From Nemertoderma westbladi (Eukaryota; Animalia; Xenacoelomorpha): a stretch of DNA of 64,000 bases. Each line of letters opens with the position of its first letter. The first letter of the stretch is position 1. Shown piece after piece: positions 1,510-57,864 of this stretch. The position numbers and the translations under genes were made by a program. The notes beneath the pieces are model-generated. The model did no database searches. It saw nothing but the letters and a program-made list of their open reading frames with translations, and was not told where the DNA came from. The stretch is taken from the NCBI GenBank assembly GCA_032718475.1, contig JAUCBJ010008954.1:1-64000 (forward strand). The letters are read 5' to 3'.

Positions 1510-1678
1510 AAAAAAAGCACGCAAACAGTCGGCCGAAGCCGGAGGCGACCCGAAGGCTCCTCTTTCGATAGCTGCTACCCGAGGGTAGGGGTGGGCGCTA
1601 CTCCTATCCCAAGATTTGCTCCCAGTTATTTAACTGGTACTCATTTTATCGACCCCAGTGGATGAAAGGCTGAGTGGA
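1509..1678 (-). mobile_element. tRNA-derived SINE, body and 3' tail (split by the LTR element)
   Basis: Minus strand reads TCCAC-TCAGCCTTTCATCCACTGGGGTCGATAAAATGAGTACCAG...CCTTCGGGTCGCC...T-run. It joins the tRNA-like head at 10444-10517 once the LTR element and one GTGGA are removed. The central motif resembles the Meta/MESC SINE core as I recall it (unverified). Confidence 0.75.
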
Positions 1679-2219
1679 TATTAGCTTATTCAATCCCGCC
1701 AACACCCCATAAAGTTATAAGCCGATAAGCAATATTGGGAGCCACGAGATTGGGCAATTAACCAACTCGTGCCATCCCAATAAGAGTGGGAAGGAAGCAC
1801 ACAATAGAGGGTCAGGGGCCAAACCCCTAACCCAGAGAGAACAGGTGGAGTGAACGGGAATACTCCACGGGGCGCCAACAAGGGTATTAACCAATCAGAG
1901 GGGGGAAAGGCATCGATTGAGTAGCAGTAAGGCCACCGTGCAATATAACCAATAACCTATTAATCAGTGATTCAGTTATCTCAGTGTAGCAGTGCTAGCG
2001 TAGGTTAGTAGTCAATTAGTTTAGTTAGGGGATCACGGGACTTTAGTTACCGTATCCCGCCTTGTACACATTATATCTATATCTATATCCTATGCCCTAT
2101 TATTATTATACACCGAACTTCAGAACTCAGTTACTTTATTTCACCCTTATACACGGCGGGGACGCGTGGACTAAATTACCACATCGGATAAATCGGGATC
2201 CCTCCTGGATCCCGTCACA
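1679..2219 (+). repeat. 5' LTR (541 bp)
   Basis: TA(TG)...CA. Matches 9925-10443 except ~3 substitutions and a 22-bp indel. TATAA at 1944 and TCAGT initiator-like motifs at 1964-1985. Confidence 0.95.
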
Positions 2220-2299
2220 GTAACTAAATCCGAGCTGCCGCCCCAGTTAAACTCTAAGAACTACACTGCTAGCTAGCCGAACTCCACCGACCAGACGAG

Positions 2300-3685
2300 A
2301 TGAGTGAATCGGGCGAGACACCGACGCGGACCCCGGACGAAGATCAAACGATCCGCGAGGCCGCGACCAAGCGATACAGGCCCACGACGCCAGAGCCATC
2401 GATAACGGGCGAACCGGAAGTCCAGAACGAGGAGAGTCTGGAACCCGAAGTCGAGCCAAGAGAGAAAGGGAGCGAGATGTAGGGAGATGGAGACGAGTCG
2501 ACACGAGACGGAGAACGGCGCGCCGACGTCGCCGGCCAGCTACCGGCCGAGGGCGACGAGCGGCCCACCGAAACGGCGATGGCGGGGCCGACGGTGCGAC
2601 GCCGGACGCGAAGAGACGGAGGAGAGATCGGTACCGATGTCGCCGGCCAGCTACAGGCCGAGGGCGACGGACGGCCCACCGGAACGGCGACGGTGGAGCC
2701 GCCGGTACGACGTCGAACCCGGAGGGACGGAGGAAAAGTCGGCGAGGAGGACGTCAGGGTCTCTGAGCGACTTCGACGAGCCTACATCGCGGCCCGGAGG
2801 ATGCTAAAGGATGCCAAAAAGGAAGGGGCGAAGGTAGACGAGGTGAGACTGAGAAAGCGACTAGGTGAGTCGGATAGACACTTTAATTATCTAATACGTT
2901 TTGGGCAGAGAGAACTAGCCGAAACGAGAGCACATGAGATTGCCGGGGAACTGTTTGAACTATGGGAATGTGGGAGTATGGAACCTAGCGTAGCGTCAGT
3001 GTACATAGGGCCATACTTGGTCGATGCCCGGGGAGTAAAACCAGTAGGTTGGAGGGGACTCGAAGGGGGCGAATCCGAGGTTAACCCCGAGGATTCGGCC
3101 TCGTCGGTCGGAGAAAGCTCCGGGAAGCGGGGGAAAGTCAGTAGGTCGGGAAGGCGGGGGAAATCCGTCGTAACCGATAAGTCTGTTACATCCTCCGCGA
3201 AAGAAAGAGCGGTGAGAGAAATAGGTGCCGCATATCGTCTCAGCATGGCAGAGCAAGGTCATAGAGAAATGAAGGAATGGCTAGAGGAAGGGAGAGTGCG
3301 GTTAGAGAGGGAAACGGCATTGCTTAAAGAAACCGGAGAGAGGGCCGAAAGGGCTTTGAAAAGCCTAAGGGAGTATGATGAGATAGAGGAAAGGGAGTGT
3401 AGGGAGCGTGAGGCGAGAGAGGAAAGGGAACGCAAGGAGCGTGAGGCAAGGGAGGAAAGGGAACGCAAGGAGCGTGAGGCGGAACGCAAGGAGCGTGAGG
3501 CGAGAGAGGAAAGGGAACGCAAGGAGCGTGAGGCAAGGGAGGAAAGGGAACGCAAGGAGCGTGAGGCGGAACGCAAGGAGCGTGAGGCAAGGGAGGAAAA
3601 GGAACGCAAGGAGCGCGAAGTGAGACGAAGGGAGAGCATTAAGAGTGCTGCAGAGTCGGCCATCAGGGACACCCAGGAGCAATAG
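2300..3685 (+). pseudogene. gag: gag N-terminal remnant (charged coiled-coil region)
   Basis: ORFs 2300-2482 and 2579-3685 share a frame, separated by a TAG at 2480. EREAREERERK repeats at ~3400-3625. The Gag core and zinc knuckles are missing. Confidence 0.7.
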
Positions 3686-4324
3686 AGAAATACGGTTGAG
3701 GAGATACTGGAAACAGGGCGCGAGGTTCGCGACATCCTGAAAGGATCCGGCTTCAACCTGACCAAATTCCAATCCAGTTCAGAAGAATTTATCAAGGCAA
3801 TAGAGGACAAGAAACCAGAATCGACCATGGACAACCCTACAACAGCCAAAGGACAGGACATGGCGAATAAGAGAACACAATCTCAGCAAAAGGCGTTGGG
3901 AATCGTGTGGGATAGAGGAACAGACGAACTGAAGTATCAGCTGAGCCAGGAGGGCGCAGACACCCATACGAAGAGGGGTTATGTATCGTATATAGCAAGG
4001 ATATACGATCCCCTAGGCCTAGCATCCCCATTACTAGTCACGGGGAAACAGATACTCAAGAGAGTATATAAATTGAAGGATGAGTGGGACGTAGAGGTAC
4101 CAGAGGACATCAAGAAACAGTGGAGCAAATGGACAGGAGACTTGGAGAGGATGGGAACATACAACATGCCGCGAGTGTATTTTCCGGACGGGAACATGAC
4201 GAATCTGGACCTACATATGTTCTCCGACGCGTCGTTAGAGGCATACGGAGCGGCACTCTATTTAGTACAACGAGAGGGGGCTCACAAGCCCAGACTAGCC
4301 TTTAGCGAAGAGCAGCTTTTTTAG
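3686..4324 (+). pseudogene. pol: pol remnant: end of RT plus Pao Peptidase_A17/RNase H N-terminal region
   Basis: Same frame as gag. Starts RNTVEEILETGREVRDILKGSGFNLTKFQSS, the segment just after YVDD in BEL RTs, then LGIVWD, YDPLG, HMFSDAS. Protease and RT catalytic core are absent. Confidence 0.88.
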
Positions 4325-4367
4325 GAGCTGCTTTAGACGAGCGAAGAAGGAACGAGCCGTACAGGAG

Positions 4368-5327
4368 ATGGCGCCACTACCGGCGAGTAGGGTAAGACAG
4401 CACGACCCGCCATTTACGCATTGCGGTGTGGACATGTTCGGGCCGATAAAGATCAAGGTGATGCGACACACGGAGAAACGCTACGGTATTATCTTCGTAT
4501 GCAACAATACGCGGGCGGTAGGGATAGAACTCGCCCAAGATGCAACCGCATCAGCATTCATTAACGCCTTAGAAAGGTTTAGGGACCGCAAAGGTGGGAC
4601 GATCGCAGTGATATACAGCGACAACGGCACCAACTTTGTGGGCGCAGAGAGTGAGATGGCAGAGGCCTTGGACATCTTGGAGGGAGAAGAAGTCAGGGCA
4701 GCCATGAGGAGACGACAAGTAAAGTGGGAGAGAAGGACGCCGTATGCACCACATACACTAGGATGCGTCGAGAGACTGGTGGGCAGTTCAAAGCGTCTAA
4801 TGACGAAGTTAATGAACACCCACATGGTCACTGAGGACGTTTTACGGACAGTACTTGCGAAGTGCAAGGGGATCATTAATAGCAGACCGCTATATCCGGA
4901 GAATGATGACCCTGAGTCGTTAGACGTGTTGACGCCTAGCCATTTTCTGATGGAAAGGCCAGCGACCATCGATATGCGGGGTGTAGACCCAGATGACATA
5001 CACTCCCGCCAAAGTTGGAAAGTCGCTAAAGCAATAAGCGCAGAGTATTGGAGGAGGTGGGTAGAAGAATACCTACCCACGCTCCATAAGCGAAGCAAGT
5101 GGAGGAAACCGAATCGGGAGTTAAAAGTAGGAGATCTCGTAATCGTTACGGATGATACTATCATCAACAACCAGTGGCGGTTGGCGAGAGTTGTAGGCAC
5201 CTACTCCGACGAGGACGGAAGAGTCCGATCGGTAGAAGTGCGGATAGGTGGAAAGATAGGTGCGAAAGACAGAAAAACCTACAGGAGAGCAGTAGGTAAA
5301 TGCTGTCTTCTAGAAGGGGCACCTTAA
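4368..5327 (+). CDS. pol: BEL/Pao integrase core plus C-terminal DUF5641-like region (pol remnant)
   Basis: DDE residues in GVDMFGP, SDNGTNF and GCVERLV, then INSRPL, LTPSHFL, W..EYL and D.DGRVRSVEV. Frameshifted relative to upstream pol; the HHCC finger is largely deleted. Confidence 0.92.
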   Translation: MAPLPASRVRQHDPPFTHCGVDMFGPIKIKVMRHTEKRYGIIFVCNNTRAVGIELAQDATASAFINALERFRDRKGGTIAVIYSDNGTNFVGAESEMAEALDILEGEEVRAAMRRRQVKWERRTPYAPHTLGCVERLVGSSKRLMTKLMNTHMVTEDVLRTVLAKCKGIINSRPLYPENDDPESLDVLTPSHFLMERPATIDMRGVDPDDIHSRQSWKVAKAISAEYWRRWVEEYLPTLHKRSKWRKPNRELKVGDLVIVTDDTIINNQWRLARVVGTYSDEDGRVRSVEVRIGGKIGAKDRKTYRRAVGKCCLLEGAP

Positions 5328-5436
5328 ATTGGAGTTAGAGTGGAGTTTAGTCGTCCAAGTTTTGGACTGAGGGGGGTGGGATTGAGGGCGAGACGCCCTT
5401 CCCACACAAATAAAAATAAAAATAAAATAAAAATAA

Positions 5437-6225
5437 TAGTTAGTTAGTTAGTAGGTACGTAGTACCTAGAGTTAGTTAGTTAGTTAGTAGGTACGTAGTG
5501 CCTAGAGTTAGAGAGTTAGTAGGTACGTAGTACCTAGAGTTAGTTAGTTAGTAGGTACGTAGTGCCTAGAGTTAGAGAGTTAGTAGGTACGTAGTGCCTA
5601 GAGTTAGTTAGTTAGTAGGTACGTAGTACCTAGTTAGAGTTAGAGGGTACGTAGTACCAATAGTTAGTTAGAGTTAGTAGGTACGTAGTACCTAGTTAGA
5701 GTTAGAGTTAGTAGGTACGTAGTACCTAGTTAGAGTTAGAGGGTACGTAGTACCGATAGTTAGAGAGTTAGAGGGTACGTAGTACCGTTAGTTAGAGTTA
5801 GAGTTAGAGGGTACGTAGTACCAATAGTTAGTTAGAGTTAGTAGGTACGTAGTACCTAGTTAGAGTTAGAGTTAGTAGGTACGTAGTACCTAGTTAGAGT
5901 TAGAGTTAGAGGGTACGTAGTACCAATAGTTAGTTAGAGTTAGTAGGTATGTAGTACCTAGTTAGAGTTAGAGTTAGTAGGTACGTAGTACCTAGTTAGA
6001 GTTAGAGTTAGAGGGTACGTAGTACCGATAGTTAGAGAGTTAATAGGTACGTAGTACCTAGTTAGAGTTAGAGGGTACGTAGTACCAATAGTTAGTTAGA
6101 GTTAGTAGGTACGTAGTACCTAGTTAGAGTTAGTAGGTACGTAGTACCTAGTTAGAGTTAGAGTTAGTAGGTACGTAGTACCTAGTTAGAGTTAGAGTTA
6201 GGGGGTACGTAGTACCATTAGTTAG
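5437..6225 (+). repeat. Array of 24 GGTAC-GTA-GTACC hairpin units separated by variable (TTAG/TTAGAG)n spacers
   Basis: Counted by eye. Period ~28-36 bp. Lies between pol and the extra ORF inside the LTR element. Confidence 0.92.
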
Positions 6226-6723
6226 AGAGAGAGAGTGAGAGGTAAAAGGGGTAAATAGGATATAGATATTAGTTAGCAGTAAGTAGAGTTAGTAGCGAGA
6301 GGGGGGCATATGAGTACAGCTGGATAAATCGTGTGGCCACACGACGCATACTGCTGTACTACATGGGCCCACAGAGTAGGCCAGAATATGGATCAGAGAA
6401 TAGAATAAACCCATAGGCAGTAGTAGGTAGTAGGACAGTAGAATCAAAGCAAACAAACAAATAAATAGAATAGGGCTAAAATCGTAAAATAGTGGCAACA
6501 CAAGGAAAGTCGTTCTAGAACATAATAAAAGTAACGGACGGAAATTGTAAATTAGGCTGATTTACTAGCTCCGAAATTAATTAGGTTAAATTTAGCTTGA
6601 AAGGCGCAATTAAGTAGAAAGTAGGCCATTATCGAACTGTACGAAACATCTTAAATACTTCACTCATCTGTATTGCGCCTTGGTAAGGTACCACCCTGCA
6701 GGTGAGCGAGTGTAGTGTTCGGA

Positions 6724-9258
6724 ATGGCGAGTAAGCTGATCAGGAAGAGAAAGGCGGAGTCAGGAGGAAAAGAAATATTGGTGGATTTCACCGAAAGACA
6801 CCCGGAAGAGAAGACGAGAGGATACTACGAGAGGTTGGAAAGGGGTCACGCGGCACGAGCGCTGCAGGATCACTTCCGGGAGGCGCACGAACAGCGGTTG
6901 GTCGGGACCTACGGGACCCCGTCGCTGGACAACGCGATCTTCCAACACTTCCACTACGTGGTGAAAGGGGACGAGGCGAAGTTCGGGATTCCGAAGTATC
7001 CGAGGGAATCGCCGAGGAAGGACTGGAAAAGATTCATAGAGTCCGTCAACAGAGGAGGATATATGATCCTAGATGACGAGGGAACCGTGGAAGACGAAGC
7101 GGGTTCGAGACGAGGAACGGCAGGGTCGGCCAGGACCATACTCCTACATTTGGCCACGCCAAATGGGGACATCTTCTTATTCGACCTAGGGACGTATGGG
7201 AAGAAGGACGGGCCGAAATTAGACCGATTGCCGAAAGCGGTACAAGTGTTAGTAAGAGAGAAGTCGACGACGAAAGTGGGATCGGCGATTCGCGAGGACG
7301 CGGAGAGGATCATCGGTCTGGACGCCACCAACCTCCTGGATATGCAGAAAGTCTTTATGGCTATGACGGCACCGGATGGATTGGGGGTAGTCGAAAACAC
7401 AGGCCAATGCGGGGCTGTGGCGATGGGCCAATTATTGGGGCTGGTATGCCACAAACCGATGGACTGGGGAAAGTTTAGGGAAGAATACGGGGCAGAACTA
7501 GCGAACTCGCTGAAGTGGGGAGCGAGACCGGGAAAGCAGGAGGTATATCAGTTTCGCAGAGGAGCGATAAAGGTATATCAGAAGCGATATATCCTGCAGG
7601 AGGACTGGATGATGATAAGTTTGCTTAACTTATTCATGACCGTAGTTATCGAAAGGGAACCAGGGGCATTTCTGTTATCGGGATCACCCCTAAGCTACAG
7701 GAGAGCCTTTAAGACGGCCTTTGACGGTCTGGTAGACCACCCGGGGCTGAAGGGCGAGTCGGTGTACTACAACAGCCGACATCTGGTAGACGGGGAGACA
7801 GATACACCGTATCAGAGATGGGAGCAGCTAGAGGCGGACAGACGAGAAGCAAAGCGACTGGAAGAAGTCGCTAGACGGGAGAGGATAGAAGCAGAGGAGA
7901 GGGAAGAGGAGGCCAGGGCACAGAGTTACGGCTTCGAGGAACAGGCGGGCCTAGACGAACTTCATTGGACTTCGTCAGGGAGTTCGGGGGAGTCTCTAGG
8001 GCGAGAATTGGGATGGATGGTGGGATCGCCGAAACAGTCGACGTCGGGGTTGCAAACGATGCCCATACCAGCGGGCGCCGAGGGCGACCAACCGCCAAGG
8101 AAGTTAAGGGAGCTAGAGGGATGGAGAGCTACGGGCGAGAGTCAAGGCGGGAAGGGACATAGTGGATCCATCGGGATACCGGGATTGGAGACACTACCAG
8201 AAGAGGAGGACGGCGACGACGAGTTCGGAGAGATGCCGCCCATCGAGAGGATAGGCCACTCGGACACAGACTGGGTTGGCGGAAGGGTGGTGACAGCCAG
8301 TGGGGCGAGGGCCTTCTGGAACAGATCCAGCAAGCGGACCTGGGTGCACGAGGAGCCGGCGATGGATTTCGCGGGGAGCACCATCAGGTTGGGCGAGCAA
8401 CCGGGAACGGCACCACGGATAGTATTCGGGGAGACGATGCCCGAGAGGGGCGGAGAGATAGACGTAAACAGGGAGAGCAACGTAGAGAAGTTCGCCTACC
8501 AGCGACTCCATAGACCGCGGAGATCGCTTGGGACGAAAGACGAGGTGGGACGGGAGACATTGGTACTCGGCTGCGACTACTGTGGGAGACAGACCCATCA
8601 GGAAAGCAGCTGCCTATACCGGTTCCAACGGGGAACCTTTTGTCTCTACTGTAGAGAACCAAGCCACAGGATGGGGGCGTGTCCACGGTTGCATAACCGA
8701 TGTCCAAAGTGCCACTTTCGGGGACACTACGGGCGCGAGTGCGACTGGATGAGCGACGAGGAGAAGTTCACAAGATTCGAGGAGTGGGCCGACGTCGGGG
8801 CCATGACGCGCCAGCGCATGAAGGCCCAAGAGTTCAAGTGGGGTTTCTTCCTCATAAACCAGGAGACCCACATGGAAATCATAAAGCGAAGGTTACCGTT
8901 TACCTATCAAGAGGTAGCAACGGCGGCATCGTTCGCCGGAGTTATGAACACGCAACGGTACCTGGACAGGTGGACACCAGAGAACCGGAGGGAGTTTAGG
9001 GATTTCTTGGCGGAACACGTACCAAAGGCAATGAAAATGATCCTATGGGACGCCACACGAGGGAGACAACCAGGCCATTCTGAGGGGCCACCGGCGAAGC
9101 GGTATCGGGCATTAATAACACCAGCGCCCAAGGAGCCAACGACCGGGATCAGCAAGGAAGTGGCGGCGAAGGTCCGGAAGCAGAAAGCGGATGATGCCAG
9201 AGGAACGGTGATAACCAAGAAACGGGCCAGGGAAGAGGACGTGAGGAGGAACAGATAA
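6724..9258 (+). CDS. Extra retrotransposon ORF (844 aa): DEDDy (WRN/EXD/Mut-7-like) 3'-5' exonuclease, coiled coil and 3 CCHC zinc knuckles
   Basis: Uninterrupted ORF. ExoI-like ILDDEG (7066-7083), LLHLATPNGDIFLFDL, ExoII-like KVGSAIREDAERI, NLLDMQ and ExoIII-like YQKRYILQED. Three CX2CX4HX4C motifs at 8572-8742. Confidence 0.8.
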   Translation: MASKLIRKRKAESGGKEILVDFTERHPEEKTRGYYERLERGHAARALQDHFREAHEQRLVGTYGTPSLDNAIFQHFHYVVKGDEAKFGIPKYPRESPRKDWKRFIESVNRGGYMILDDEGTVEDEAGSRRGTAGSARTILLHLATPNGDIFLFDLGTYGKKDGPKLDRLPKAVQVLVREKSTTKVGSAIREDAERIIGLDATNLLDMQKVFMAMTAPDGLGVVENTGQCGAVAMGQLLGLVCHKPMDWGKFREEYGAELANSLKWGARPGKQEVYQFRRGAIKVYQKRYILQEDWMMISLLNLFMTVVIEREPGAFLLSGSPLSYRRAFKTAFDGLVDHPGLKGESVYYNSRHLVDGETDTPYQRWEQLEADRREAKRLEEVARRERIEAEEREEEARAQSYGFEEQAGLDELHWTSSGSSGESLGRELGWMVGSPKQSTSGLQTMPIPAGAEGDQPPRKLRELEGWRATGESQGGKGHSGSIGIPGLETLPEEEDGDDEFGEMPPIERIGHSDTDWVGGRVVTASGARAFWNRSSKRTWVHEEPAMDFAGSTIRLGEQPGTAPRIVFGETMPERGGEIDVNRESNVEKFAYQRLHRPRRSLGTKDEVGRETLVLGCDYCGRQTHQESSCLYRFQRGTFCLYCREPSHRMGACPRLHNRCPKCHFRGHYGRECDWMSDEEKFTRFEEWADVGAMTRQRMKAQEFKWGFFLINQETHMEIIKRRLPFTYQEVATAASFAGVMNTQRYLDRWTPENRREFRDFLAEHVPKAMKMILWDATRGRQPGHSEGPPAKRYRALITPAPKEPTTGISKEVAAKVRKQKADDARGTVITKKRAREEDVRRNR

Positions 9259-9915
9259 GTTCCCAGATACGAGGGAGTGAGACTGAGACTGGGACGTGGT
9301 GCGCCTGGAAGGCGCCGCATGGAACGTACGAACTATTAAATACAAATTTAATTAATGCAAATAATCATATAAGTGCAATTTGTATGTACGTACGTAGTAA
9401 TTAGCAGTAAAATACACGATCGGAGTAAGTACTATAGTCATACAACCTTTCTCAACTAGCTAGTGGGACTGTGACAATTTCACACTTCTTGAGTGCGACG
9501 GCACGAGAGGGGGGGGAGATTCGTCAGAAGGGAAGAGACAGTCGAAGTGAGGTTGAGGGACGGAGTAATAGTGCGGAGTGCGGAGAGAGTGCCGATGCAA
9601 TTCCAGTGTGGGGGGGGGAGAATAAGAGGCTGAGTAAGGGACGAGGAGGTCCGAATGTGAGAGAGTTAGGGCGAGAGTGAAGGTGAGATAGGGCGAAAAT
9701 GTTGGGGAAACAAAAGTTGCGTGGGAGGTGAGCGCGATCGGCCCGACATGAGACGCCAGGCACACAGGGTAGCGTCATCATACCCATAGGGGGCGGCCTG
9801 GAAAGCCGACCCCGAGAGAAAAGAATTCCACCCCACACCCGATACTAGATCGGGATCCAGCGGGATTGTAACGCACTTTTAGGTTGATGCTATCTTCTTA
9901 CCGGGAAGATAGCAT

Positions 9916-9924
9916 GGGGGGGAG
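9916..9924 (+). other. Polypurine tract
   Basis: GGGGGGGAG immediately before the TG of the 3' LTR. Confidence 0.85.
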
Positions 9925-10443
9925 TGTTAGCTTATTCAATCCCGCCAACACCCTATAAAGTTATAAGCCGATAAGCAATATTGGGAGCCACGAGATTGGG
10001 CAATTAACCAACTCGTGCCATCCCAATAAGAGTGGGAAGGAAGCACACAATAGAGGGTCAGGGGCCAAACCCCTAACCCAGAGAGAACAGGTGGAGTGAA
10101 CGGGAATACTCCACGGGGCGCCAACAAGGGTATTAACCAATCAGAGGGGGGAAAGGCATCGATTGAGTAGCAGTAAGGCCACCGTGCAATATAACCAATA
10201 ACCTATTAATCAGTGATTCAGTTATCTCAGTGTAGCAGTGCTAGCGTAGGTTAGTAGTCAATTAGTTTAGTTAGGGGATCACGGGACTTTAGTTACCGTA
10301 TCCCGCCTTGTACACATTATATCTATATCTATATCCTATGCCCTATTATTATTATACACCGAACTTCAGAACTCAGTTACTTTATTTCACCCTTATACAC
10401 GGCGGGGACGTGTGGACTAAATTACCACATGGATCCCGTCACA
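9925..10443 (+). repeat. 3' LTR (519 bp)
   Basis: TG...CA, followed by the TSD GTGGA. Confidence 0.95.
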
Positions 10444-10517
10444 GTGGACCCTGGCGGGGCTAAACCTACAACCAATAGATTGCAGGCCCGGCGCTCAACC
10501 AACTGAGCTACCCCGCC
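10444..10517 (-). mobile_element. tRNA-derived SINE head
   Basis: Minus strand GGCGGGGTAGCTCAGTTGGTTGAGCG...TGCAA...GGTTTAGCCCC: intact A-box, degenerate B-box, no proper cloverleaf. Continues into the SINE body at 1673. Confidence 0.75.
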
Positions 10518-10518
10518 T

Positions 10519-12720: not shown

Positions 12721-15700
12721 CTATCTAAGAGATGGTTGTGTAGATGGTTGTTTATCAGAATGTTTCAGTATCCAAGTGATTGTTTCCTGTAACATTGACA
12801 ACGAGAAACTATTAGCGATACTCATTAGGGTGTCGAGTCTCTGGAAGAGTTTTCTTCGAGTAAACGTGTTCTCGAAATTCCCGGCACATTGACACCACCG
12901 TTTCATGTTATCCGGTTTAACCCAATTGCATTTGGCGCAGACGAGATCCTGCGTAGCGTAGGCGACGGACAGCCGGTTAACCACCTGGATCAGTCGGGAC
13001 TCCATGACGCCGTCGTCGTAAGGGGTGTCGCACGCGGGGCAGTGCCACCGGGGCGGAGACCCGGATCCCGCACTCGAGATCCCTGGATCCCGACACAGAT
13101 CCACATCGCGACAATAGTTGCAAAACTTACAAATAACATCATTGAGTATGTAAGTCAAACAAGGATCGCGCCATTGGGCCTCCCTGGCGAATTCCTTCAC
13201 TCCGATTAGTTGAAGCAAATTGCGTTTAAGTTTCGCGGCTTGGCAATGGATGTTTGTATCCAACGCAAGGACCCGCACGATCGCTTTAACAAGTTCCAAC
13301 GCGGGATTATTCGGATGTAAGTAATGTCCTGGAGGCTCTGGGAAAACCTTCCAATCCGGACCGCTGTACTTCCGGTTGAGATCGGCGATGATGGCGAAGA
13401 CCTGCTGACTCATGTCGTTGTCCACGAGATCCTGGGAGAACTGGACCACTTTGGGGGTGGCGATAGCGTCGCCTTGGAACTTGAGCTGCGTGTTGGGTAC
13501 GTGACGCACCGCAGGGGTTTGTCCCGGGGCGTGAGAAGATTTCTCCTTCTCGACTTCATAGAAGATCGCCATGATGTAACCCGCGATGACCGCGTTGAAA
13601 CTGTCCTGACAACCGGCCTCGATAGGAAGAAAGTTCTTTATATTCCAGTTCATTACGACCTCTATGTTGTCATCATCAGACTCATGTATATCTTCGTCGA
13701 TACACTCCTCTAGGTTATCAACTCCGATTCTTCCTTTGATTCCGCCGAAGTTGGCGTAGTCCAACCAAAGTAGAAACCGCCACCAACCACTTACGGAAAT
13801 GTTAATCCCATGGAAGATTGTCTTGGCGGTGATCGAGCTGATAAGATAGCGGATGTAGGAAACAGAATCAGATAAATGTCGCTTACGGGTGAACGCGAGG
13901 ATCCTGTTGAAATTCGCGTAAACAACAACAGCCCCGAGGTTGTGAAACTCAGAGATTAAAAGCATAAAGAGTTTCTTCATTAGATCGTTAACCATCCGCA
14001 TTAAGGCGGGGTCGTGGAACAGAGACTCGGAGTTCTGTAACCACCGGTAAAAATTGATGATCTGTTCGTCGGCGTATTCGTTTCGGTGCTGCGTTACGTC
14101 ACGCAACCACGCGTGAACGACACCGCGGAGCACGCGGAAAGCTCCGGCGCAGCGGGAAGTCTCGTCGAAGGCGGTGCCGTCTGTGCCGACGCCAACGCCG
14201 CCGTCGCACAGCAACTCCTCCATGGAGTGCTGCGCCCCCGGGGCCCCGTCGAAGTTCAACGCCATGGAGCCGCCGCCCTCAAGAGCATTTATATTGTGGG
14301 CCTGGAGGAGGGTGTTGATGGCAAGGTTGGAGAGACTCAACTCGACCGACACTGTGGCGTAGCAACCCGGTTGATTGACCTCGACGCAGCCCGGAGCGTC
14401 GGCGCTGGTGTCAACCCGCGCGTCATCCACCTCCTTGCCGCCCAAATCTGGGCGTCGCCCGGGCGCCGCCCACCACACGTGGTTCTGGTCGGTTAGTTCG
14501 CGGGCATACGCCACATCGCAGCCCAGCAGATGGGCATCGTCCGTTAGGTTGCCAACAGGTACATTGAAGTATCGTGATTGGCTGAGTAGACGGGCATAGA
14601 TGCGATTGTACGATAGGTAGCCAATCATAACGCGCCGAGAAACAATTCGCTGCCAATCCAACACGTTAAAAGATAAATCATCTTTGATAAAAATCCGAGT
14701 GGAAGGGAAGTCTCTTAACAAAGCGATGTTTGAGTAAAGGTTCGAAGTAGTTGAAGTGGTTTGGTAGATAATCATGGTAGGGCCGTGGCTTTCTTGTTGG
14801 TAAGTTTGAAGGAACCGTTGCACAGCCGAGTGAAGTTTCTTTAAATCGTTGACGACATCGGCAGTGAATACGTGGTCTCCTAGAGGAAGGTCGTCAACCT
14901 CTTCTTGATTAAGAGACTCGAATAGTTTACCACGTTCCTCGTTGTAAGTCGACACGAGATTGGGGAGGTTGTTTGCCGATGATGGGTCTAGAAGGAACAG
15001 TGAACCTTTCTTGAGTTTGGGTAGGAAGACTGCGATAATTTGTCTGTTGCTGGATTCGTGTTGGTAGAGGTAGACATGGTTGATAGAGCCGGGAGCGAGG
15101 TAGCTGGTGCCGGAACCTCGTTTACGAGCTAGTTGGTTCAGCTGGAAGGAGGTTGAGTGGCGCGATCGTTTAGCCGCGTCCGCCGTCACCTGGCAACGGG
15201 CTCCCAATACAGCGACGGCACGGAAGAGCAGCGGTACCTGGGTCTCGTAGATCCCCTCGATCTCCGGGGCCGAGATGTCGGCGTTGAGTTCGTTGACGTA
15301 CTGCACGAAGAGACCCTCGGGTACCGAGTACTCGTACAGGTTGTGGACTTGGTTGGAGCGAGGGAGGACCTTATTGGCCCGTCTCCAACACGCGGAGCCC
15401 CCCGAATGATCCTCCGCCTTGGGCGTCTTCTGGTTGACGTAGAAGATCCTGGGGATGGTGACAGTGACGGTGTGGAGACCATCGCCGATAACCACCCAGA
15501 GTTGAACATCCCCCAGAACTTCCGTATCCCGGATTTCAACGACCTGCCATTGACTGGTTAGTAGCCCCGCCTTGCTACGCAGCAGGAAACCCTGCATCCC
15601 CATGGCAACTGCATCAGGAGCAGCCAATCGTCGTCGCTTAACCCCCTGTTGTTTGCTCGCCATCTGGTATTTCCATTTCTTTTTGTGCCATTGCAACCAC

Positions 15701-15885
15701 TTGGCCATATCATCCTTGTTGCTTCCCATCCTTGGTGGCTCGCCCCACCTCTCCTTGAAGGTACCAGCACCCACCGCTTCTACGTCTTCTGTGTCTCGGG
15801 TCTTCCGTTTGGTAGACACTCGTGGTGTCGCCTTCACCCGGGGTGTCATCGACATACCGTGAATGTCCTCAATATCGTTGGAAAC
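12721..15885 (-). CDS. POLE: DNA polymerase epsilon catalytic subunit, exon 6 (C-terminal inactive polymerase domain, CysA/CysB)
   Basis: WLQWHKKKW, IPRIFYVN, EGIYETQVP, PDLGGKE, FYRWL, CKFC...CPAC, CAKC...CQC. Acceptor TAG at 15888-15886; stop TAG. Confidence 0.96.
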   Translation of the reverse strand, partial: VSNDIEDIHGMSMTPRVKATPRVSTKRKTRDTEDVEAVGAGTFKERWGEPPRMGSNKDDMAKWLQWHKKKWKYQMASKQQGVKRRRLAAPDAVAMGMQGFLLRSKAGLLTSQWQVVEIRDTEVLGDVQLWVVIGDGLHTVTVTIPRIFYVNQKTPKAEDHSGGSACWRRANKVLPRSNQVHNLYEYSVPEGLFVQYVNELNADISAPEIEGIYETQVPLLFRAVAVLGARCQVTADAAKRSRHSTSFQLNQLARKRGSGTSYLAPGSINHVYLYQHESSNRQIIAVFLPKLKKGSLFLLDPSSANNLPNLVSTYNEERGKLFESLNQEEVDDLPLGDHVFTADVVNDLKKLHSAVQRFLQTYQQESHGPTMIIYQTTSTTSNLYSNIALLRDFPSTRIFIKDDLSFNVLDWQRIVSRRVMIGYLSYNRIYARLLSQSRYFNVPVGNLTDDAHLLGCDVAYARELTDQNHVWWAAPGRRPDLGGKEVDDARVDTSADAPGCVEVNQPGCYATVSVELSLSNLAINTLLQAHNINALEGGGSMALNFDGAPGAQHSMEELLCDGGVGVGTDGTAFDETSRCAGAFRVLRGVVHAWLRDVTQHRNEYADEQIINFYRWLQNSESLFHDPALMRMVNDLMKKLFMLLISEFHNLGAVVVYANFNRILAFTRKRHLSDSVSYIRYLISSITAKTIFHGINISVSGWWRFLLWLDYANFGGIKGRIGVDNLEECIDEDIHESDDDNIEVVMNWNIKNFLPIEAGCQDSFNAVIAGYIMAIFYEVEKEKSSHAPGQTPAVRHVPNTQLKFQGDAIATPKVVQFSQDLVDNDMSQQVFAIIADLNRKYSGPDWKVFPEPPGHYLHPNNPALELVKAIVRVLALDTNIHCQAAKLKRNLLQLIGVKEFAREAQWRDPCLTYILNDVICKFCNYCRDVDLCRDPGISSAGSGSPPRWHCPACDTPYDDGVMESRLIQVVNRLSVAYATQDLVCAKCNWVKPDNMKRWCQCAGNFENTFTRRKLFQRLDTLMSIANSFSLSMLQETITWILKHSDKQPSTQPSLR

Positions 15886-16116
15886 CTACAAGAGGGAGTA
15901 ACGTATGTGGAATTAATTAATGGATAGTGGAAGTAGTGTACGGATGATTCGTATATTTAATGTGAAAAAACTATTGAAAATAAGGCAATTTAAGAAAATA
16001 AGGAATTTATGCGAATTTCTGCAACAATCGTGTAAATATCGCAATGGGGATTGTATTTTTCACCGGGATCCCGGTTTTTCGGGATCGGGATCCCGTTTAA
16101 ACCATGACTACCATAG

Positions 16117-17333
16117 AGATAGACCCATTCTACGTCCGCACAAGACCATTATCTGCCATCTAAGACCGCACTAGACCAATTATCTGCCACCTAAGACCGC
16201 ACTAGACCCATTATCTGCCATCTAAGACCGCACTAGACCCATTATCTGCCACCTAAGACCGCACTAGACCCATTAACTGTCACCTAAGACCGCACTAGAC
16301 CCATTATCTGCCACCTAAGACCGCACTAGACCCATTATCTGTCACCTAAGACCGCACTAGACCCATTATCTGCCACCTAAGACCGCACTAGACCCATTAT
16401 CCATTATCTGCCACCTAAGACCGCACTAGACCCATTATCTGCCATCTAAGACCGCACTAGACCCATTATCTGCCACCTAAGACCGCACTAGACCCATTAT
16501 CTGCCACCTAAGACCGCACTTGACCCATTATCCATTATCTGCCACCTAAGACCGCACTAGACCCATTATCTGCCACCTAAGACCGCACTTGACCCATTAT
16601 CCATTATCTGCCACCTAAGGCCGCACTAGACCCATTATCTGCCACCTAAGACCGCACTTGACCCATTATCCATTATCTGCCACCTAAGGCCGCACTAGAC
16701 CCAGTATCTACCACCTAAGGCCGCACTAGACCCATTATCCATTATCTGCCATGTAAGGCCGTACTAGACCCATTATCTGCCACCTAAGGCCGCACTAGAC
16801 CCATCATCCATTATCTGCCACCTAAGGCCGTACTAGACCCATTATCTGCCACCTAAGGCCGTACTAGACCCATTATCTGCCACCTAAGGCCGCACTAGAC
16901 CCATTATCTGCCACCTAAGGCCGCACTAGACCCATCATCCATTATCTGCCACCTAAGGCCGTACTAGACCCATTATCTGCCACCTAAGGCCGTACTAGAC
17001 CCATTATCTGCCACCTAAGGCCGCACTAGACCCATTATCTGCCACCTAAGGCCGCACTAGACCCATCATCCATTATCTGCCACCTAAGGCCGTACTAGAC
17101 CCATTATCTGCCACCTAAGGCCGTACTAGACCCATTATCTGCCACCTAAGGCCGCACTAGACCCATTATCTGCCACCTAAGACCGCACTAGACCCATTAT
17201 CTGTCACCTAAGACCGCACTAGACCCATTATCTGCCACCTAAGGCCGTACTAGACCCATTATCTGCCACCTAAGGCCGTACTAGACCCATTATCTGCCAC
17301 CTAAGGCCGCACTTGACCCATTATCTGCCACCC
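16117..17333. repeat. 31-bp minisatellite in POLE intron 5
   Basis: Unit CTAAG[AG]CCGCACTAGACCCATTATCTGCCAC, with 38-bp variants. Abuts the exon 5 donor. Confidence 0.96.
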
Positions 17334-17335
17334 AC

Positions 17336-17557
17336 CTGTAAAGGTTTGAATATTTCCGTGATTCTCTTCTGTTTCAACACATCGTCCTTCTCCAGCTGTT
17401 TCCGGTGCAGCCAGTCGGGGTGCGGCACTCTCGGCACCGGATTGGACACCGACTGCAACGCGGCTGGGATGGTGATGATCTTTTGGATAGCGCTGCCGAG
17501 TCGCTCCACATAGTAACCCCAATCGAGAATATCTCGAATGTCCATCGACGTAACAAC
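17336..17557 (-). CDS. POLE: POLE exon 5
   Basis: [30 protein letters not shown]...HPDWL. CAG acceptor, GTGGGT donor, phase 0/0. Confidence 0.95.
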
Positions 17558-18410
17558 CTGCAATTATTTCATGGTAAATAATGAAATATAGTTCACAACA
17601 AAGTGTCAGGACGAAATATTTTTACAATTTAGAAAGCGTGCCATGTCGAGATTCATCATAAGGCATTTTGATTTGTGAGAATTACTTAATAATTGGGGAT
17701 CAGGTGGAAGTGGTTCTATCACTATCAGTATCACCTGTGCCATTATCTTTTCAGCTTTGGTCAGTACTGTATTGGTGTAGACAATACTCGGTTTCTTCTT
17801 TATAAGTTACATTATTTATTTTTTCGGAAAAATGTAGAACTTTTTTACGAATTCTCGAGGTATTTCATTTACCGAGCGCCAACGAGGTTAATAAAGGGTC
17901 GAGAGAATATTGAAAAATCAACTTTTACGTTTTTTTCCCATGTAATACGTAATTTCATTCTTAAATTGGTACTTTTTGTTGCTCAATTCTTTAATTAAAA
18001 TATAGAACGATATAGTGTTACAAAATAAATTGAACTGTAGTATTTTACTATATTGCTTCCATATTTACTCCTATTCAAATTACTCTACTCTTCAACTCTC
18101 GATGCTGCCTTAACTCAACGTTAAATAATTTAGTGTTCTCGAATATTTATTACGTAACTAGAGAGCCGCTTAACAACCGTACGAGACACGAGTACGCCGC
18201 GCAGACACTAAAGTTGCAATAACTTTTGAGTGTGTGAATGGATTTTGCTCAAATTACGTGCAAACCTTTTCTCCTTCCATGTTCTTTTAACACAATGTAA
18301 TAAAAAAGTAACATTTAATGCAACCATAGTAACCATACTAGTTTCATTTCTTCTCATGATTCAGGGCCGTACATTAGGGCGAAAGATTAACAATTTAATA
18401 ATAAAATAAT

Positions 18411-21355
18411 AACACTTAAACTGGTCTGCGTCTTCATTTAGTTTTGTTTCGACTTGATAGGAACACAAATTTGTGTTTTATGTGAATGTACGCGAACTGG
18501 TGGGAAAACATAGATTGACGTTCTCCGAGTTGGTAAGAACACAAATATGTTTTAAATTTAAATTTTTACAGTTGTGTCAGTAGTCAGACATTGTGTTAAA
18601 AGGTTGAATAAAGGCCTGTGGCCGAAATATACCTTACTTATCAATTTTTCAACGTTACCGAAAGGTCAGCTCTATCACTTTATTTAATTTTAATTAAATA
18701 TGTGTTTGCCTGAGCGGCTATCCACTTGGCCCTGACGCTTTTTTGTGTTTTAGACATATTTTACGTATTCCTATAATACTACTACTTAATGAATCCCTAT
18801 GGGTTTATCATTACCGGTATTCAATCGCTTGAATGTAGAGCTACACAATGGTAGTTGAATCATCTCGAATCGCCCACTATGGCAGACGCAGTGGTGTGAG
18901 AAAGATTCTAAAATATAGAAAAGTTTAAGTAATGGGCGTTTTTTAACATTATGTCGGATGGACAAAAGATTACCACTACTAGACAGCCCTGTTTATGGGC
19001 TTTCTTCCGATACCTCATATCCGCCAGTTTGGCATCCCCAACGCCCACACAAAGTTTTCCCAGAGGTATGCTTCACAGTATAACAATAACTGAATCTCAA
19101 GACTTCGGCTGCAATATTCCCACACCCCATAAACTTATATAAATGGTTCTTCGTTACTTCGTTTTAGTATCAACGGATTGATAGACCAACTTTATTTGGA
19201 TGGATACATTTTATGACGTGGAAAACTTTTCTACTCCGGTATTCATTCGATTCATGTTATCGAATTGGAGAAACTTATTTATTAATGAATTTATTATTTT
19301 AATTTATTATTATTAATTTATTATTTTAATTTATTATTATAATTTATTATTTTAATTTATTATTTTAATTTATTATTATTTATTTACTATTTTAATTTAT
19401 TTTTATTTATTTATTTATAGTTCTTATTTATTATATTAAGAACAATAGCCGTTAACTCCCGTCTCGTTTATTAATTTTTCACACCTTGCTCATGAAATAT
19501 GGAGTTTAAATAAAATGGCTACTTTTATTCCTAAGCCTAAGTTAATAAATAGTTACTTTTAAATATCAGCACCCTTTGATTTTATAACGGATATATACGT
19601 ATACATACGTATATACGTATACATATATACATAATAGTATTACGTATATATGTGACAGAGATGGATGCGACAGAGCTAAAATTTCATCCGGAGCCGGAGC
19701 CCGGAGGTTGCTCCGGATTACAATATGAGCTCCGGCCAGAGACGGAGCCGGAGCCGGAGATTTGGTGATTGATAATTCCAGTGTATTATTATATTAGACA
19801 TAAACAGATATGTGTCCATGAGACATGGGGGGGGGGGGGGGATTTGATGCAATTTCTTACGCGGCGAATTAATATCTCGCCTCAATGTTAAATTATCAAT
19901 TAAGGGAAATGAGCAATTTACAGTCGCATACTATTATAATCAAAACAATAAACTAACTATATTCAATATAACAGGTTACAGTTTTTTTGTAGTAATCAGC
20001 AGTTATTTGCGTCGATTTTCCCCTGGAGAGGGAAGGGATGAATTTATATTGCGTCCAAAGACTCCCTGCTGTAAAATGGTACATCAACCAATGGGTATCG
20101 TGACGAAGCCAAAAAACTATATTGGGGGGGGGGGGGGGGGGGTGATACTCTACCGACATCAAAACAACGCAGGACATTATTATGACCATCGCTAATTATG
20201 TCTATAATTTATGTCAGGTAATACGTCATAGGTCCTATAGTCGTTAGGTCCCGTGACATAATGTCCTGCGACAATAGATCCTTAGTTACAACAGCTATGA
20301 TTACTAGTATAAAATTAATCTGTAACATGTGCTATCGAGTCTCGTTAGAATAATACCGGTCCGTCACTATATAACCTGCACCCTTCTCGACTGAAAAAAC
20401 GACATGAACAGTACCAACCTGTTGTGGATGGGGGGTGGGGGTCAGTGGAATTGGGGTTCTATAGACTGACGAACGAAACGAGAGTACATGTACAGTATTT
20501 AATATTTTTAATTAGGGAAGAATATTAATTGAATTAACTGAATCATTTCAATGTTTTTGTCTAAATATTTAAACAATTTCTCAAGGGTGGGTGGGGGTTT
20601 ATTAGGAAACTTAAAAAAACATGCTGTAAATTACTTAATGAGTTATTATGTTAATTACTATGATATTTACATTATTCATACATCAGAAAAACTTATTATT
20701 TTAATTCAAATTTCAACAACATGAGCTCCGGATTGGCTCCGGGTTAATTTGCCCGGAGCCGGAACCAGAGCCGGAACTAGAAAATTGGCCCGGAGCTCCG
20801 GATTTCCGGAGCCGGAGCCGGAGCTCTGTCGCATCCCTAGGTAATACTATATAGTAGACTATAGAAAACTATCATACGAAAAAAGTTTATGGGACAGATG
20901 ATAGCCACATTAACTCGGACTCTGATTAACTGTTTATCTAACTGATTAAAACTGTTTGTCTAACTTTCTGTCTTAAATGTTTAACTGTTTATCTTGTATT
21001 TAATGTATATTAAATCAATATAGAAATTAAAAAAAAACCTTCTCCTTATTTTAATGGAAAGATTTTTGTACATGAACATCTAAATGATTATAAAATCCAA
21101 AGAAAAACGCTGACCAAGTTGGATAAAACTCATAAAAAACATCTCACCAAGTCAGACAATACTTACTAAAACACAGATTTGTGTTCATACCAACTCGAAA
21201 CGTAGTTTCTAAAATGGTTAGACCCGCTCGTGACATAAAAGTGTAAACACATATTTGTGTTTTTACCAAGTCAATACAACAACGAAATATATACAGGACC
21301 AAGTCAACATTGTATTCTGAAAACACAAATATGTGTTTCTACCAGTTTAAGTGTT
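18411..21355. mobile_element. Degenerate TIR element (possibly Kolobok-like) filling most of POLE intron 4
   Basis: AACACTTAAACTGGT at 18411 is inverted at 21341-21355. AACACAAAT.TGTGTT/ACCAA subterminal motifs occur in inverted orientation at both ends. TTAA follows the right end only. Confidence 0.45.
19663..20839. mobile_element. hAT-like non-autonomous element
   Basis: GGATGCGACAGAGCT ... AGCTCTGTCGCATCCCTA inverted termini and GGAGCC subterminal repeats. The left end is eroded and no TSD was found. Confidence 0.65.
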
Positions 21356-21370
21356 TTAATTAATAAGAAC

Positions 21371-21876
21371 CTGCATTTTCAACCATTTCTTCAGGTAATG
21401 TCGCTTAACCCCCGGTTCTGCCATGAATATCGCCACAGGTATCGCTCGTTCAGTAACCGGGGCTCCTTCGGGTTTACGCGATATTATGTAGCGACAACTG
21501 AGTCCTTTATCCTTGACCATGGCGTCCCCTAGGAACTCCGCTAGTCTCTTAGCCGTCGATATCGACGTAGACTTCTGGGCGCCGTAATCCTCTAGTTTCT
21601 GACTCATTGTTCGGTTCTCGGAGATCAAATCAAACAATTCGTCGTCAGGCATGTCCATGGCCTTGCTGTAGAGGACGTCGAGCCAATAGTTGGCCACCTT
21701 GGCGACGTGTTGGTAACATTCCGAGAGGTCTGAACCCTCGAGGAATCTATCGAACACCGAACTCTGGAATATCTTTATGAGTCCCAACTCGCCACGTCGT
21801 TTAATCTCGAAACCTTTGAGTTCGGCTATCGATTTATCGAAGTTGAACACGGCGTAACGTTTCTTTAACTTCTTAC
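21371..21876 (-). CDS. POLE: POLE exon 4
   Basis: [49 protein letters not shown]. Phase-1 acceptor; the donor (GTTCTT) is weak but restores frame. Confidence 0.93.
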
Positions 21877-22059
21877 CTGAGAGAATTAATAATGTAAAAA
21901 GTCAAAATATTTCCAGATAGTTTATTGAATATTCAAAGAAAGTTGAAGATTTTCAAGTAGAATTGGCCGAGGAGTTACGTGGCTTGATGCAATAAATATG
22001 GGCATTCTTTGTTTGTTTACAGTATTTAAACACACATTATTGCCCTTTGAATGGGAGAA

Positions 22060-22280
22060 TCTTTTAGGCTCGTTAAGCCAAGGAATGCCTGTTCACCACC
22101 ATTGGTGATCTTCCACAGTAAACCCTGTTTCACAAGTTGCCTTGGTTCCCATTTATCGACCACTGAAGGATGAAAACCAGGGTTGGGCTAGGCTTTTAAA
22201 GCACTGTGCCCAGACAGTGCTGCCCCATCTAGGGATCGAACCAGTGCATCCTGATTGGAAGCCCAGGATTGTCATAATTG
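22060..22280 (-). mobile_element. Degenerate SINE remnant
   Basis: CCCATTTATCGACC...GAAGGATGAAA resembles the core of the SINE at 1640-1670. B-box-like GGTTCGATCCC on the minus strand near 22235. Confidence 0.45.
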
Positions 22281-22660
22281 CCCTTTTAAAAGTATAAATA
22301 AAACTTTATTTCATATGCGACCAATTGCCGGTCAAAGTGCGCCACTATCTGGGGTGACGGGTGTGAAATTGGAAAGTTGGGGGTCAAGGGCGCAAAATCA
22401 CCGCAAACACCAAATTGTGTGTTTAGAGTTAGTGGGTTTGAAATAAGGGAAAGGAGCAGGTTATAGTGGCAGTGTTTTCTAACCAAAACAATAAACTATA
22501 ATTTATTTCACTTGCTGTCAATGTGGGCCACTATCTGGAAAGTGGAACTAATATTTCTGTACACCTGACTATCATTAACCCAATGGAAAATCATATATTT
22601 ATTGGTTAAAAATTTATAAGATATAATAAATTTGTCACTTAGTAACATATATTTATAAAC

Positions 22661-23732
22661 CTTCATCTTTTGCTGCTGGTAGAATCATCGCCAAGTAGGG
22701 TCCGTCCACCTCGAAGAATATCGAGTTCTCCGTACGAATCTTATAAGACAGACTCTTTGGGTCCTCCAACTCTTGGTACTGGTGGTTGGTGAAGTCGTCC
22801 TTCACCATTACGTTCAACATCGCGCCGGGGTAGGAGAGAGTCCGACGCGCACCGCTACGGAGACGCAGTGTGTAGGCCTCCGGGAAGCTGGCCGGAAGCA
22901 TGCACCAGATCCCGTCGGTGTCCAACTCCAGCGGCCGTCCAATCTTCTCGATAATCTCGCGAGCGCGGACGATAATGTTGGACCCGGTGTGGCAAACGAT
23001 CCCCGCCATCTCCATAGAGTGCCACCGCGAGCCGCGCCGCATCACGTACCCGTAGAACGAGTTCAATATACACTTGTGCGCGAGTTGCAACGAATCGTAG
23101 AGTATTTCTTTATTTCCCGCGGACTTTATTGCCTCGGGGTCGCCGCTCTTTACGGCCTCGGCGAGTTGTTTCTTCCAGTGCTTAGTCAGCCCCTTGAACT
23201 CGTAACGGCGGTCGCGGAACGCGCGAACCGTATCAACGTAGAAGGAATTCTCGCGTTGACACACCGTGGATATTCGCTCCTCCACTCTGGTTACTTTTGT
23301 TCGCTTGTACGCTTTATGGCAGTAGCTAGCTAACCTCTTCTTCTCTAATGTAGATTGTTCCTCTTTACTGAGTTGGTGGAAGGCTTTCGTTCCCCCGTTA
23401 TCAGACGGGAATTGCTCCAACTCTAACTGCTGTTGTATTCGCTGAAATTCCGTCTTCGAAGCCGGGGTCATTTCTCCCCGCCATGTCCACGCCATCTTGC
23501 GTTGGCAGTTGGAACCGGCCTTGTTGAAGTCGCATGCGGCGCACATCCGCTCGGATACGATGGCGGGCGGCTGGAGTCGATTGGTTAGAATGATGTTTGG
23601 GTACATAGCGGCCACGTCCAGATGGTAGATTATCGGTTTATCCAGTCGGGAGGGATTCTCCCGCAGATGAATCAACTTATCGCGGATGTCGTCACAAATT
23701 TCATCGAAGTTTTCAACCTCCTCAAAGGCAAT
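22661..23732 (-). CDS. POLE: POLE exon 3 (polymerase palm/fingers)
   Basis: [18 protein letters not shown]...CQR (CysX), [30 protein letters not shown]. Confidence 0.96.
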
Positions 23733-27019: not shown

Positions 27020-27097
27020 TGCAGTTTGCGCTGTTGTACCCCACAGTCTGACAGTAGATAGTCAGATAGTTGTTTTTCAGTGTTTGTGTACCGATAG

Positions 27098-29368: not shown

Positions 29369-29384
29369 TTTTTAGATTGGCTAG

Positions 29385-54689: not shown

Positions 54690-57864
<3,175 letters not shown>

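Follow-up and report, generated by a model that had tools for sequence, protein, structure and literature searches.

What is the role of a third open reading frame (ORF) that is not env in a long terminal repeat (LTR) retrotransposon? The question is posed by a contig of Nemertoderma westbladi (Xenacoelomorpha; GenBank assembly GCA_032718475.1, contig JAUCBJ010008954.1), of which positions 1 to 64,000 of the forward strand, here called the window, were analyzed. The window contains a young, internally deleted BEL/Pao LTR retrotransposon with, as its third ORF (ORF3), a protein that combines a predicted DEDDy 3′-5′ exonuclease with three CCHC zinc knuckles (Table 1). ORF3 is a widespread accessory gene of a BEL/Pao lineage, with dozens of diverse relatives, and both of its domains are under purifying selection. 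Whether it serves the element in cis, as an RNA-binding exonuclease, or acts elsewhere is weighed below.

A preliminary description, made from the letters of the window, had recognized in this ORF a WRN/Mut-7-like exonuclease fused to three zinc knuckles. The ORF is open, and the D-x-E, D192, the LLDM motif (aa, amino acids, 204–207), and the Y...ED stretch (Y289-I-L-Q-E293-D294, 7588–7605) are all at the positions given there. The predicted fold is of the RNase H-like DnaQ type, with the motif order ExoI DxE, ExoII D, ExoIII Y kept and the four acids on the expected strand and helices of the model. ExoIII is non-canonical, as had been noticed, but D294 is not its acid: the family alignment places E293 in the acid column, giving YxxxE (in this column, D occurs in 39 of 73 rows and E in 22). 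The YxxxE form, a conservative variant, is common to seven of the 39 relatives keeping all four acids. The assignment of the N-terminal domain as a predicted DnaQ-like DEDDy 3′-5′ exonuclease, with D117, E119, D192, Y289, and E293, holds.

Searches with single sequences yield no name for the domain. Pfam gives no family on the ORF3 protein, and none of the extra domains of Mut-7/Nibbler, EXD2, or WRN. With the exonuclease domain alone, phmmer finds no match in the PDB; a word-index protein search with aa 20–360 returns none, and alignment A1 none at E ≤ 1e-8. The full phmmer scan gives 75 unnamed proteins, many with both the N-terminal domain and the Cys domain; in the 43 of these scanned with Pfam, PF01612 appears below the cut-off in two and weak knuckle matches in six, and no named member is present among 10 protein clusters looked up. 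In the ESM Atlas, aa 95–330 adjoin PF01612 clusters (0.94; PF01612 on 34% of members). A profile of 28 sequences matches EXD2 (1.4e-9), TbRND (2.7e-5, over both domains; PDB 7c45), WRN, and Egalitarian, and an exonuclease-only profile of 30 loci matches EXD2 (E = 1.4e-11) and nothing else below 0.1. Profiles built from relatives, with the query excluded, score 94 bits on the N-terminal domain and 98 bits on the Cys domain, and 12 Cys/His/Arg/Gly positions are invariant across 28 aligned proteins, so that the domain assignments are far beyond chance.

The single-sequence fold is unusable (predicted local distance difference test, pLDDT, 36) and the model used is alignment-based, with two confident domains. 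Against Aedes Nibbler EXO, the modeled exonuclease (range 59–349) gives Z 14.2–14.3 (root-mean-square deviation 3.3–3.6 over 203–209 residues). NrnC/diDNase (Z 13–14), WRN (13.2), Egalitarian (13.0), and TbRND (12.9) are also matched; polymerase exonucleases and Rrp6 fall in the Z 12–14 range, and Exd1 is among the matches. Foldseek returns 52 matches at E ≤ 0.001, with TbRND structures at the top and the Egalitarian I-factor RNA complex among them, and a BFVD search only generic giant-virus and phage exonucleases. An element-encoded DnaQ-like fold fused to knuckles, as first proposed, is thus borne out. The label WRN/Mut-7-like stands for the fold family and not for a finer placement, since the structure scores are close together and the best sequence match is EXD2. 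The members of the PF01612 clan (Nibbler/Mut-7, EXD2, WRN-exo, EXD1, Egalitarian) have the same fold and motif order as ORF3; their identity with it is 12–18%, none of their other domains is present in ORF3, and a family-specific insert lies between ExoII and ExoIII.

Each of the three knuckles is an exact CX2CX4HX4C (first Cys C617, C640, and C660), in agreement with the preliminary description, and the helical cap that follows contains the conserved motifs LH, RGH, AxxGxxT, and WGF. By profile, the knuckles resemble those of Gag nucleocapsid and Lin28. The Zn domain has no sequence match in the PDB better than E = 0.6, its best Atlas value is 0.85, and its alignment gives eight unnamed matches in the word-index protein search; the triple knuckle is a previously unannotated domain. 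Between exonuclease and knuckles, the disordered linker that had been proposed is present (pLDDT < 50), whereas the proposed coiled coil reduces to one long predicted helix. Basic clusters, identified by pattern match only, occur at the ends of ORF3 (aa 7–10, 789–795, and 818–844).

The surrounding element has the direct LTRs, polypurine tract, and short target-site duplication of BEL/Pao and, in pol, PF05380 (Peptidase_A17, a BEL/Pao hallmark), integrase, and DUF5641; a complete single gag-pol ORF is not present in the window copy. The named clades of BEL/Pao include Bel, Pao, Tas, Suzu, Sinbad, and Sailor. The two pol remnants match separate stretches of the gag-pol of relative L013 (aa ~1328–1546 and 1880–2195 of 2208 aa), and thus the segments before and between them are missing. 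Compared with the gag-pol of five relatives, the protease, most of the reverse transcriptase (RT), and part of the RNase H/integrase region are absent. Because the protease, most of the RT, and the part between the remnants are gone, the copy is non-autonomous; because its LTRs differ at only three of 505 bp, the insertion is young. The ORF in gag position has no Pfam match and no tblastn match with the gag-pol of the five relatives, so that the label is one of position alone. Downstream of the 5′ LTR, a primer-binding site cannot clearly be recognized, and Rfam has no match within the element. In the host sequencing runs, contigs join ~1674 to 10445, an empty form of the flanking repeat. Many diverged copies, covering the whole element with ORF3, are also present in these runs (depth in 30 of 30 bins in three DNA runs; 27,941 contigs placed in run X1).

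The element is inserted in a repeated sequence resembling a short interspersed nuclear element (SINE) (1500–1678 and 10430–10518), itself within a 21-bp satellite, and the empty form of this flank is common in the host runs. The far end of the flank looks tRNA-derived by eye on the minus strand; neither ARAGORN nor Rfam calls a tRNA there. An identical run of 16 bases is found at 2206–2221 (within the element, just past its 5′ LTR) and at 10430–10445 (in the flank after the 3′ LTR), and could stem from homology-guided target choice or from later conversion.

Table 1. Features of the BEL/Pao element, of its ORF3, and of the rest of the window (window coordinates, except where loci of relatives are named)
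Feature	Position	Strand	Remarks
Target-site duplication TGGA	1675–1678; second copy 10430–10433	+	from flanks
5′ LTR	1679–2183	+	505 bp; starts TA not TG, ends CA; 3 mismatches with 3′ LTR
Broken ORF in gag position	2300–3685	+	low-complexity E/R-rich repeat; stops at 2480–2482 and 3683–3685
Pol remnant 1	3686–4324	+	RT end and PF05380 Peptidase_A17 region, E = 1.1e-29
Pol remnant 2	4299–5327	+	integrase core and DUF5641; PF18701 E = 3.6e-25, rve E = 5.7e-5; ends TAA
Tandem array in pol–ORF3 spacer	5437–6227	+	period ~34 bp
ORF3	6724–9258	+	844 aa, unbroken, own ATG; between pol and 3′ LTR
DEDDy 3′-5′ exonuclease domain (predicted)	6901–7773	+	aa ~60–350; model and profile matches
ExoI D117-x-E119	7072–7080	+	predicted strand aa 113–121; column aligned with EXD2 D-C-E
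ExoII D192	7297–7299	+	predicted helix aa 189–196
ExoIII Y289-x-x-x-E293	7588–7602	+	predicted helix aa 284–311
Long E/R-rich helix (aa 362–402) and disordered linker (aa 403–612)	7807–8559	+	model
Triple CCHC knuckle domain (aa 617–673) and conserved helical cap (to ~aa 765)	8572–9018	+	invariant columns; pLDDT 69–94 per block
Polypurine tract upstream of 3′ LTR	9915–9924	+	sequence inspection
3′ LTR	9925–10429	+	505 bp, TG...CA
DNA polymerase epsilon catalytic subunit gene	12721–27061	−	several large exons; last open over 1054 codons
tRNA-Arg(ACG) gene beside frameshifted remains of a long interspersed nuclear element (LINE)-type RT	36053–37896		LINE label by eye
AT-rich open frame, 1324 aa	44118–48092	+	three internal repeats of ~440 aa; Pfam families only at E ≥ 0.007
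Unrelated satellite arrays	16136–17332, 29383–31464, 38501–43569, 54843–57864, 61768–63999		periods 31, 28, 29, 20 bp
Hairpin after pol UGA, ORF3 in frame	L007:1234–1299, L065:6736–6801, L068:5645–5710, and 13 related loci		relatives

A DNA motif scan (H-x4-C-x2-LH-x2-C-x2-C-x2-RGH, a motif present in 61 of 78 proteins) over metagenome contigs, covering 26 of 64 parts, finds at least 120 loci (~300 estimated). The knuckle profile confirms 117 of the 120 and L079 is confirmed separately; L014 is unconfirmed as a family locus, and L071, which lies in an H+-pyrophosphatase, fits the pattern by chance. Viral contigs contain no match to the knuckle DNA pattern. Of the loci, 31 extend 5 kb or more upstream; in 30 of these, a BEL/Pao pol lies directly before ORF3 on the same strand, and in none on the opposite strand (the search used BEL/Pao queries only); the exonuclease is visible in 28 of the 31. 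PF05380 is present in all 14 upstream pol ORFs scanned, 11 of them open frames of 2000–2400 aa. Loci L013, L026, and L046 have an open gag-pol of 2100–2400 aa, and in L023 and L013 terminal repeats enclose ORF3. As the loci were found via the knuckle motif, nothing is inferred on the share of BEL/Pao elements without ORF3. Apparent fourth ORFs after ORF3 (in L051, L009, L040, and L074) are gag starts in circularly permuted assemblies. ORF3 variants of 1300–1600 aa occur in L005, L015, L043, and L051; in these, the exonuclease is preceded by a very long N-terminal stretch of low complexity.

Trees of ORF3 and integrase were compared for the window and 30 loci in which all three domains are present. 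Sixteen of 18 well-supported ORF3 splits are present in the integrase tree and 15 of 18 in the reverse comparison, with no conflict; the rank correlation of distances is 0.87, a value reached in none of 5000 permutations. No exchange of ORF3 between lineages is seen in this set. Because the trees agree while the integrases have drifted to ~30% identity, ORF3 has travelled with pol over deep time. The ratio of nonsynonymous to synonymous substitution rates (dN/dS) has a median of 0.15 in the exonuclease (maximum 0.25, 21 pairs) and of 0.15 in the knuckle domain (maximum 0.37, 76 pairs), for non-independent pairs of 65–99.5% identity, with no sign of positive selection in any pair tested. In the host copies, 15 of 17 ORF3 variants are synonymous (among the best-supported 40 of 909 variant rows).

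Catalytic residues are not kept throughout the family. Among 73 non-redundant exonuclease domains, 39 have all four acids (32 end in D and 7 in E) and 34 are without at least one: two are cut short, 11 show scattered losses, and 21 form one clade devoid of the active site (SH-aLRT, Shimodaira–Hasegawa-like approximate likelihood ratio test, 99 in a quick tree). In this dead clade, the frames are open, several members have a full gag-pol, and dN/dS is 0.04–0.25 in its pairs; the catalytic residues are lost, and the gene is still under selection. Elsewhere, the D-E-D-Y-D/E set persists over branches of 1–2 changes per site. The ORF3 of the window sits on a long branch, and support for its placement with other YxxxE forms is weak (84). 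A separate lineage (L010, L044, L077, and L079) has the ExoIII Tyr replaced by His, with all four acids kept.

The route of expression differs between relatives. In 12 of the 43 loci with both a pol end and an exonuclease, ORF3 is in the pol frame without a stop over 414–789 nt, and pol ends with TGA in all 12. The stop is followed by C in 10 (CGG in three, CAA-TTA in two, CAT in two, and CAA-TTT, CTC, and CGC once each) and by GGG in two. TGA-C occurs in five of the other 31 loci, four of which fall inside the same clade and show one apparent break; in the remaining 27, the pol stop is TAA or TAG in 19. With base pairs scored at a fixed offset, a 9-bp stem without mismatch begins 9 nt past the stop in nine of the 16 loci of the readthrough lineages. 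None of the other 28, one of which is the window, has it, and shuffled sequences form it in 0.6% of cases. Two to five pair types occur at each position, which indicates covariation, and the hairpin consists of this 9-bp stem, a TCGG-containing bulge, and an upper stem. Folding z-scores have a median of −1.5 for the 12 in-frame loci vs. −0.7 for the others. The readthrough arrangement is limited to two lineages: most of the dead clade, and L029 with L076, which have active nuclease residues and no exact 9-bp stem.

Among the readthrough signals given in PMC3542737 are UGA-CGG with a stem-loop ~8 nt downstream, CARYYA, and UGA-GGG. The relatives present the same UGA-CGG, UGA-CAA-UUA, and UGA-GGG contexts as Type I/II programmed readthrough, with a stem-loop ~9 nt after the stop; here the putative extension would lead from pol into an accessory BEL/Pao ORF. 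In the dead clade and one other lineage, ORF3 is therefore probably produced at a low level, through UGA readthrough that lengthens Gag-Pol. In the window element, pol ends with TAA and is followed by a 1.4-kb spacer, and there is no readthrough route to ORF3; with its own ATG, it would need its own mRNA.

The same pair of domains, a DEDDy exonuclease followed by CCHC knuckles, is found in trypanosome TbRND (PDB 7c42–7c4c; PMC7797062). TbRND is a cellular guide-RNA trimmer with four knuckles, a 28-aa linker, and no helical cap, at 14–17% identity with ORF3, and the common layout is probably convergent. The knuckle domain of TbRND raises RNA binding and cleavage and selects uridine (PMC7797062). 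By analogy, the ligand of ORF3 is quite probably single-stranded RNA, which the knuckles would grip and feed, 3′ end first, into the exonuclease pocket.

For the role itself, we favor a cis-acting RNA-binding exonuclease that works on the RNA or the particle of its own element, a reading that we put near the midpoint between belief and doubt. The target would be the genomic RNA of the element in its ribonucleoprotein or particle; ORF3 would trim ragged or tailed 3′ ends, or may merely cap and shield them, and a Pol-ORF3 fusion would deliver it in small numbers to the particle or to the complex that replicates the element. The strict co-inheritance with pol and the likely readthrough fusion in relatives lean toward a role of this kind, within the cycle of the element itself; an RNA trimmer, as the preliminary description had suggested, is plausible. 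Because a large clade has lost the catalytic residues and kept the gene, the main task is likely to be binding, with cleavage as an option. Egalitarian is a precedent for an RNA-binding exonuclease fold without normal catalysis. EXD1 is another such RNA-binding form (PMC5408684).

Several points weigh against this cis-acting role. Neither the window element nor 27 of the 43 loci have the readthrough signals, and the cis argument is thus borrowed from relatives; the stem offset was a post hoc choice, and the counts come from related and hence non-independent loci. A readthrough product might be released by the protease and work elsewhere, and the basic clusters at the ends of ORF3 could, from their sequence, direct nuclear entry. 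Co-inheritance with pol is expected of any helpful linked gene, including a trans-acting one, and ORF3 distances are ~1.8 times integrase distances, which a model of conflict with the host predicts as well. Finally, DNA is a substrate of EXD2 and WRN as well, and knuckles of the nucleocapsid type bind single-stranded DNA, too.

The faster divergence of ORF3 leads to the best surviving alternative, unlikely in our estimate, in which ORF3 acts in trans against silencing, as the preliminary description had suggested. The active form would over-trim or destroy precursors of PIWI-interacting or small interfering RNAs, or remove U/UG decay tails, and the dead form would decoy Nibbler/EXD1/Mut-7-type factors. 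The top structural match is indeed Nibbler EXO (Z 14.3), and Egalitarian and Exd1 are matched; however, that score lies within ~1 Z of NrnC, WRN, and polymerase exonucleases, and so cannot single out small-RNA enzymes. DEDDy ORF3s occur in two mechanistically different classes of rotifer retroelements, for which a silencing role has been raised (PMC5408684). Uridylation restricts LINE-1 and RNA viruses (PMC6232586), and uridine is what the TbRND knuckles select. On the other hand, the dN/dS maxima (0.25 and 0.37) give no sign of positive selection, no swaps of ORF3 between lineages are seen, and a low-level Pol fusion would be a poor source of an abundant antagonist. The suggestion thus finds no direct support, and co-inheritance together with the readthrough fusion leans toward the element's own cycle.

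Rather unlikely, too, is an action on DNA, in the particle or pre-integration complex, where ORF3 would remove mismatched or non-templated 3′ nucleotides of the complementary DNA (cDNA) and dead forms would hold cDNA ends or tether integrase. EXD2 is the best sequence match, the proofreading domains of WRN, Pol I, and apicoplast polymerase reach Z 11.8–13.2 against the model, and readthrough would join ORF3 to the integrase end of Pol. A proofreader, however, would have to be catalytically active, and of the 16 loci of the readthrough lineages, 14 are in or beside the dead clade; moreover, the sole solved exonuclease-plus-CCHC protein is an RNase. Very improbable is a role unrelated to nuclease function, with ORF3 as a piece of host sequence carried along passively, as an additional nucleocapsid gene of gag type, or as a stand-in for env: the nucleocapsid- and Lin28-like knuckles and the 34 incomplete rows would agree with it, but purifying selection on both domains, co-inheritance, and the long persistence of D-E-D-Y-D/E do not, and a hydrophobic segment is present in only five of 36 two-domain ORFs, at scattered positions, next to a nuclease fold.

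An exonuclease in ORF3 is in itself unsurprising given the rotifer precedent. DEDDy ORF3s are known in the rotifer Juno and Vesta LTR retrotransposons and in Athena/Terminon elements (Rodriguez et al. 2017, PMC5408684; PMC5718144; PMC6431247). In Juno and Vesta, the exonuclease is a third ORF behind pol, as here, and a D-to-E motif change occurs too; 3′-end processing or a silencing role was proposed (PMC5408684). The rotifer ORF3s belong to elements of the gypsy type and to Penelope-like ones; they were acquired on at least two occasions and were swapped between classes. Compared by description only, the BEL/Pao ORF3 differs by its fixed triple-CCHC partner and its vertical inheritance. The accessible rotifer texts make no mention of BEL/Pao, a triple knuckle, readthrough, or a dead clade, although their figures or supplements may show knuckles. 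Cer1 CERV, considered as a possible counterpart, was set aside: the protein overlaps gag, has a C4 loop, and lacks an exonuclease (PMC10309623). Full-text literature searches, whose coverage leaves out most subscription papers and Repbase, found no such ORF described for BEL/Pao, and the parts available of PMC2996953 and PMC2774666 contain nothing on one. As far as found, the combination is new: an exonuclease fused to knuckles and passed on vertically, BEL/Pao-wide, together with a dead clade and a probable site of recoding.

The element lies in a satellite-rich stretch of an animal genome and is followed by the DNA polymerase epsilon gene (12.7–27 kb). Many long ORFs of the window are by-products of satellite arrays.

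The rotifer DEDDy ORF3s are too few and too scattered to reveal selection or mechanism. A fuller picture, which we regard as doubtful, would have an ancient BEL/Pao lineage package its own knuckle-guided 3′-end-editing enzyme, which in some branches would reach the particle attached to Pol through readthrough. The enzyme would strip tails added by the host from the genomic RNA or proofread cDNA ends during reverse transcription, and one successful branch would have turned it into a dead RNA-binding adaptor fused to integrase. The relatives contain a likely new recoding site in BEL/Pao elements. The BEL/Pao family offers dozens of diverse, intact members under selection, and its contrasts between active and dead nuclease, and between separate ORF and readthrough fusion, make the function of such a third ORF testable.

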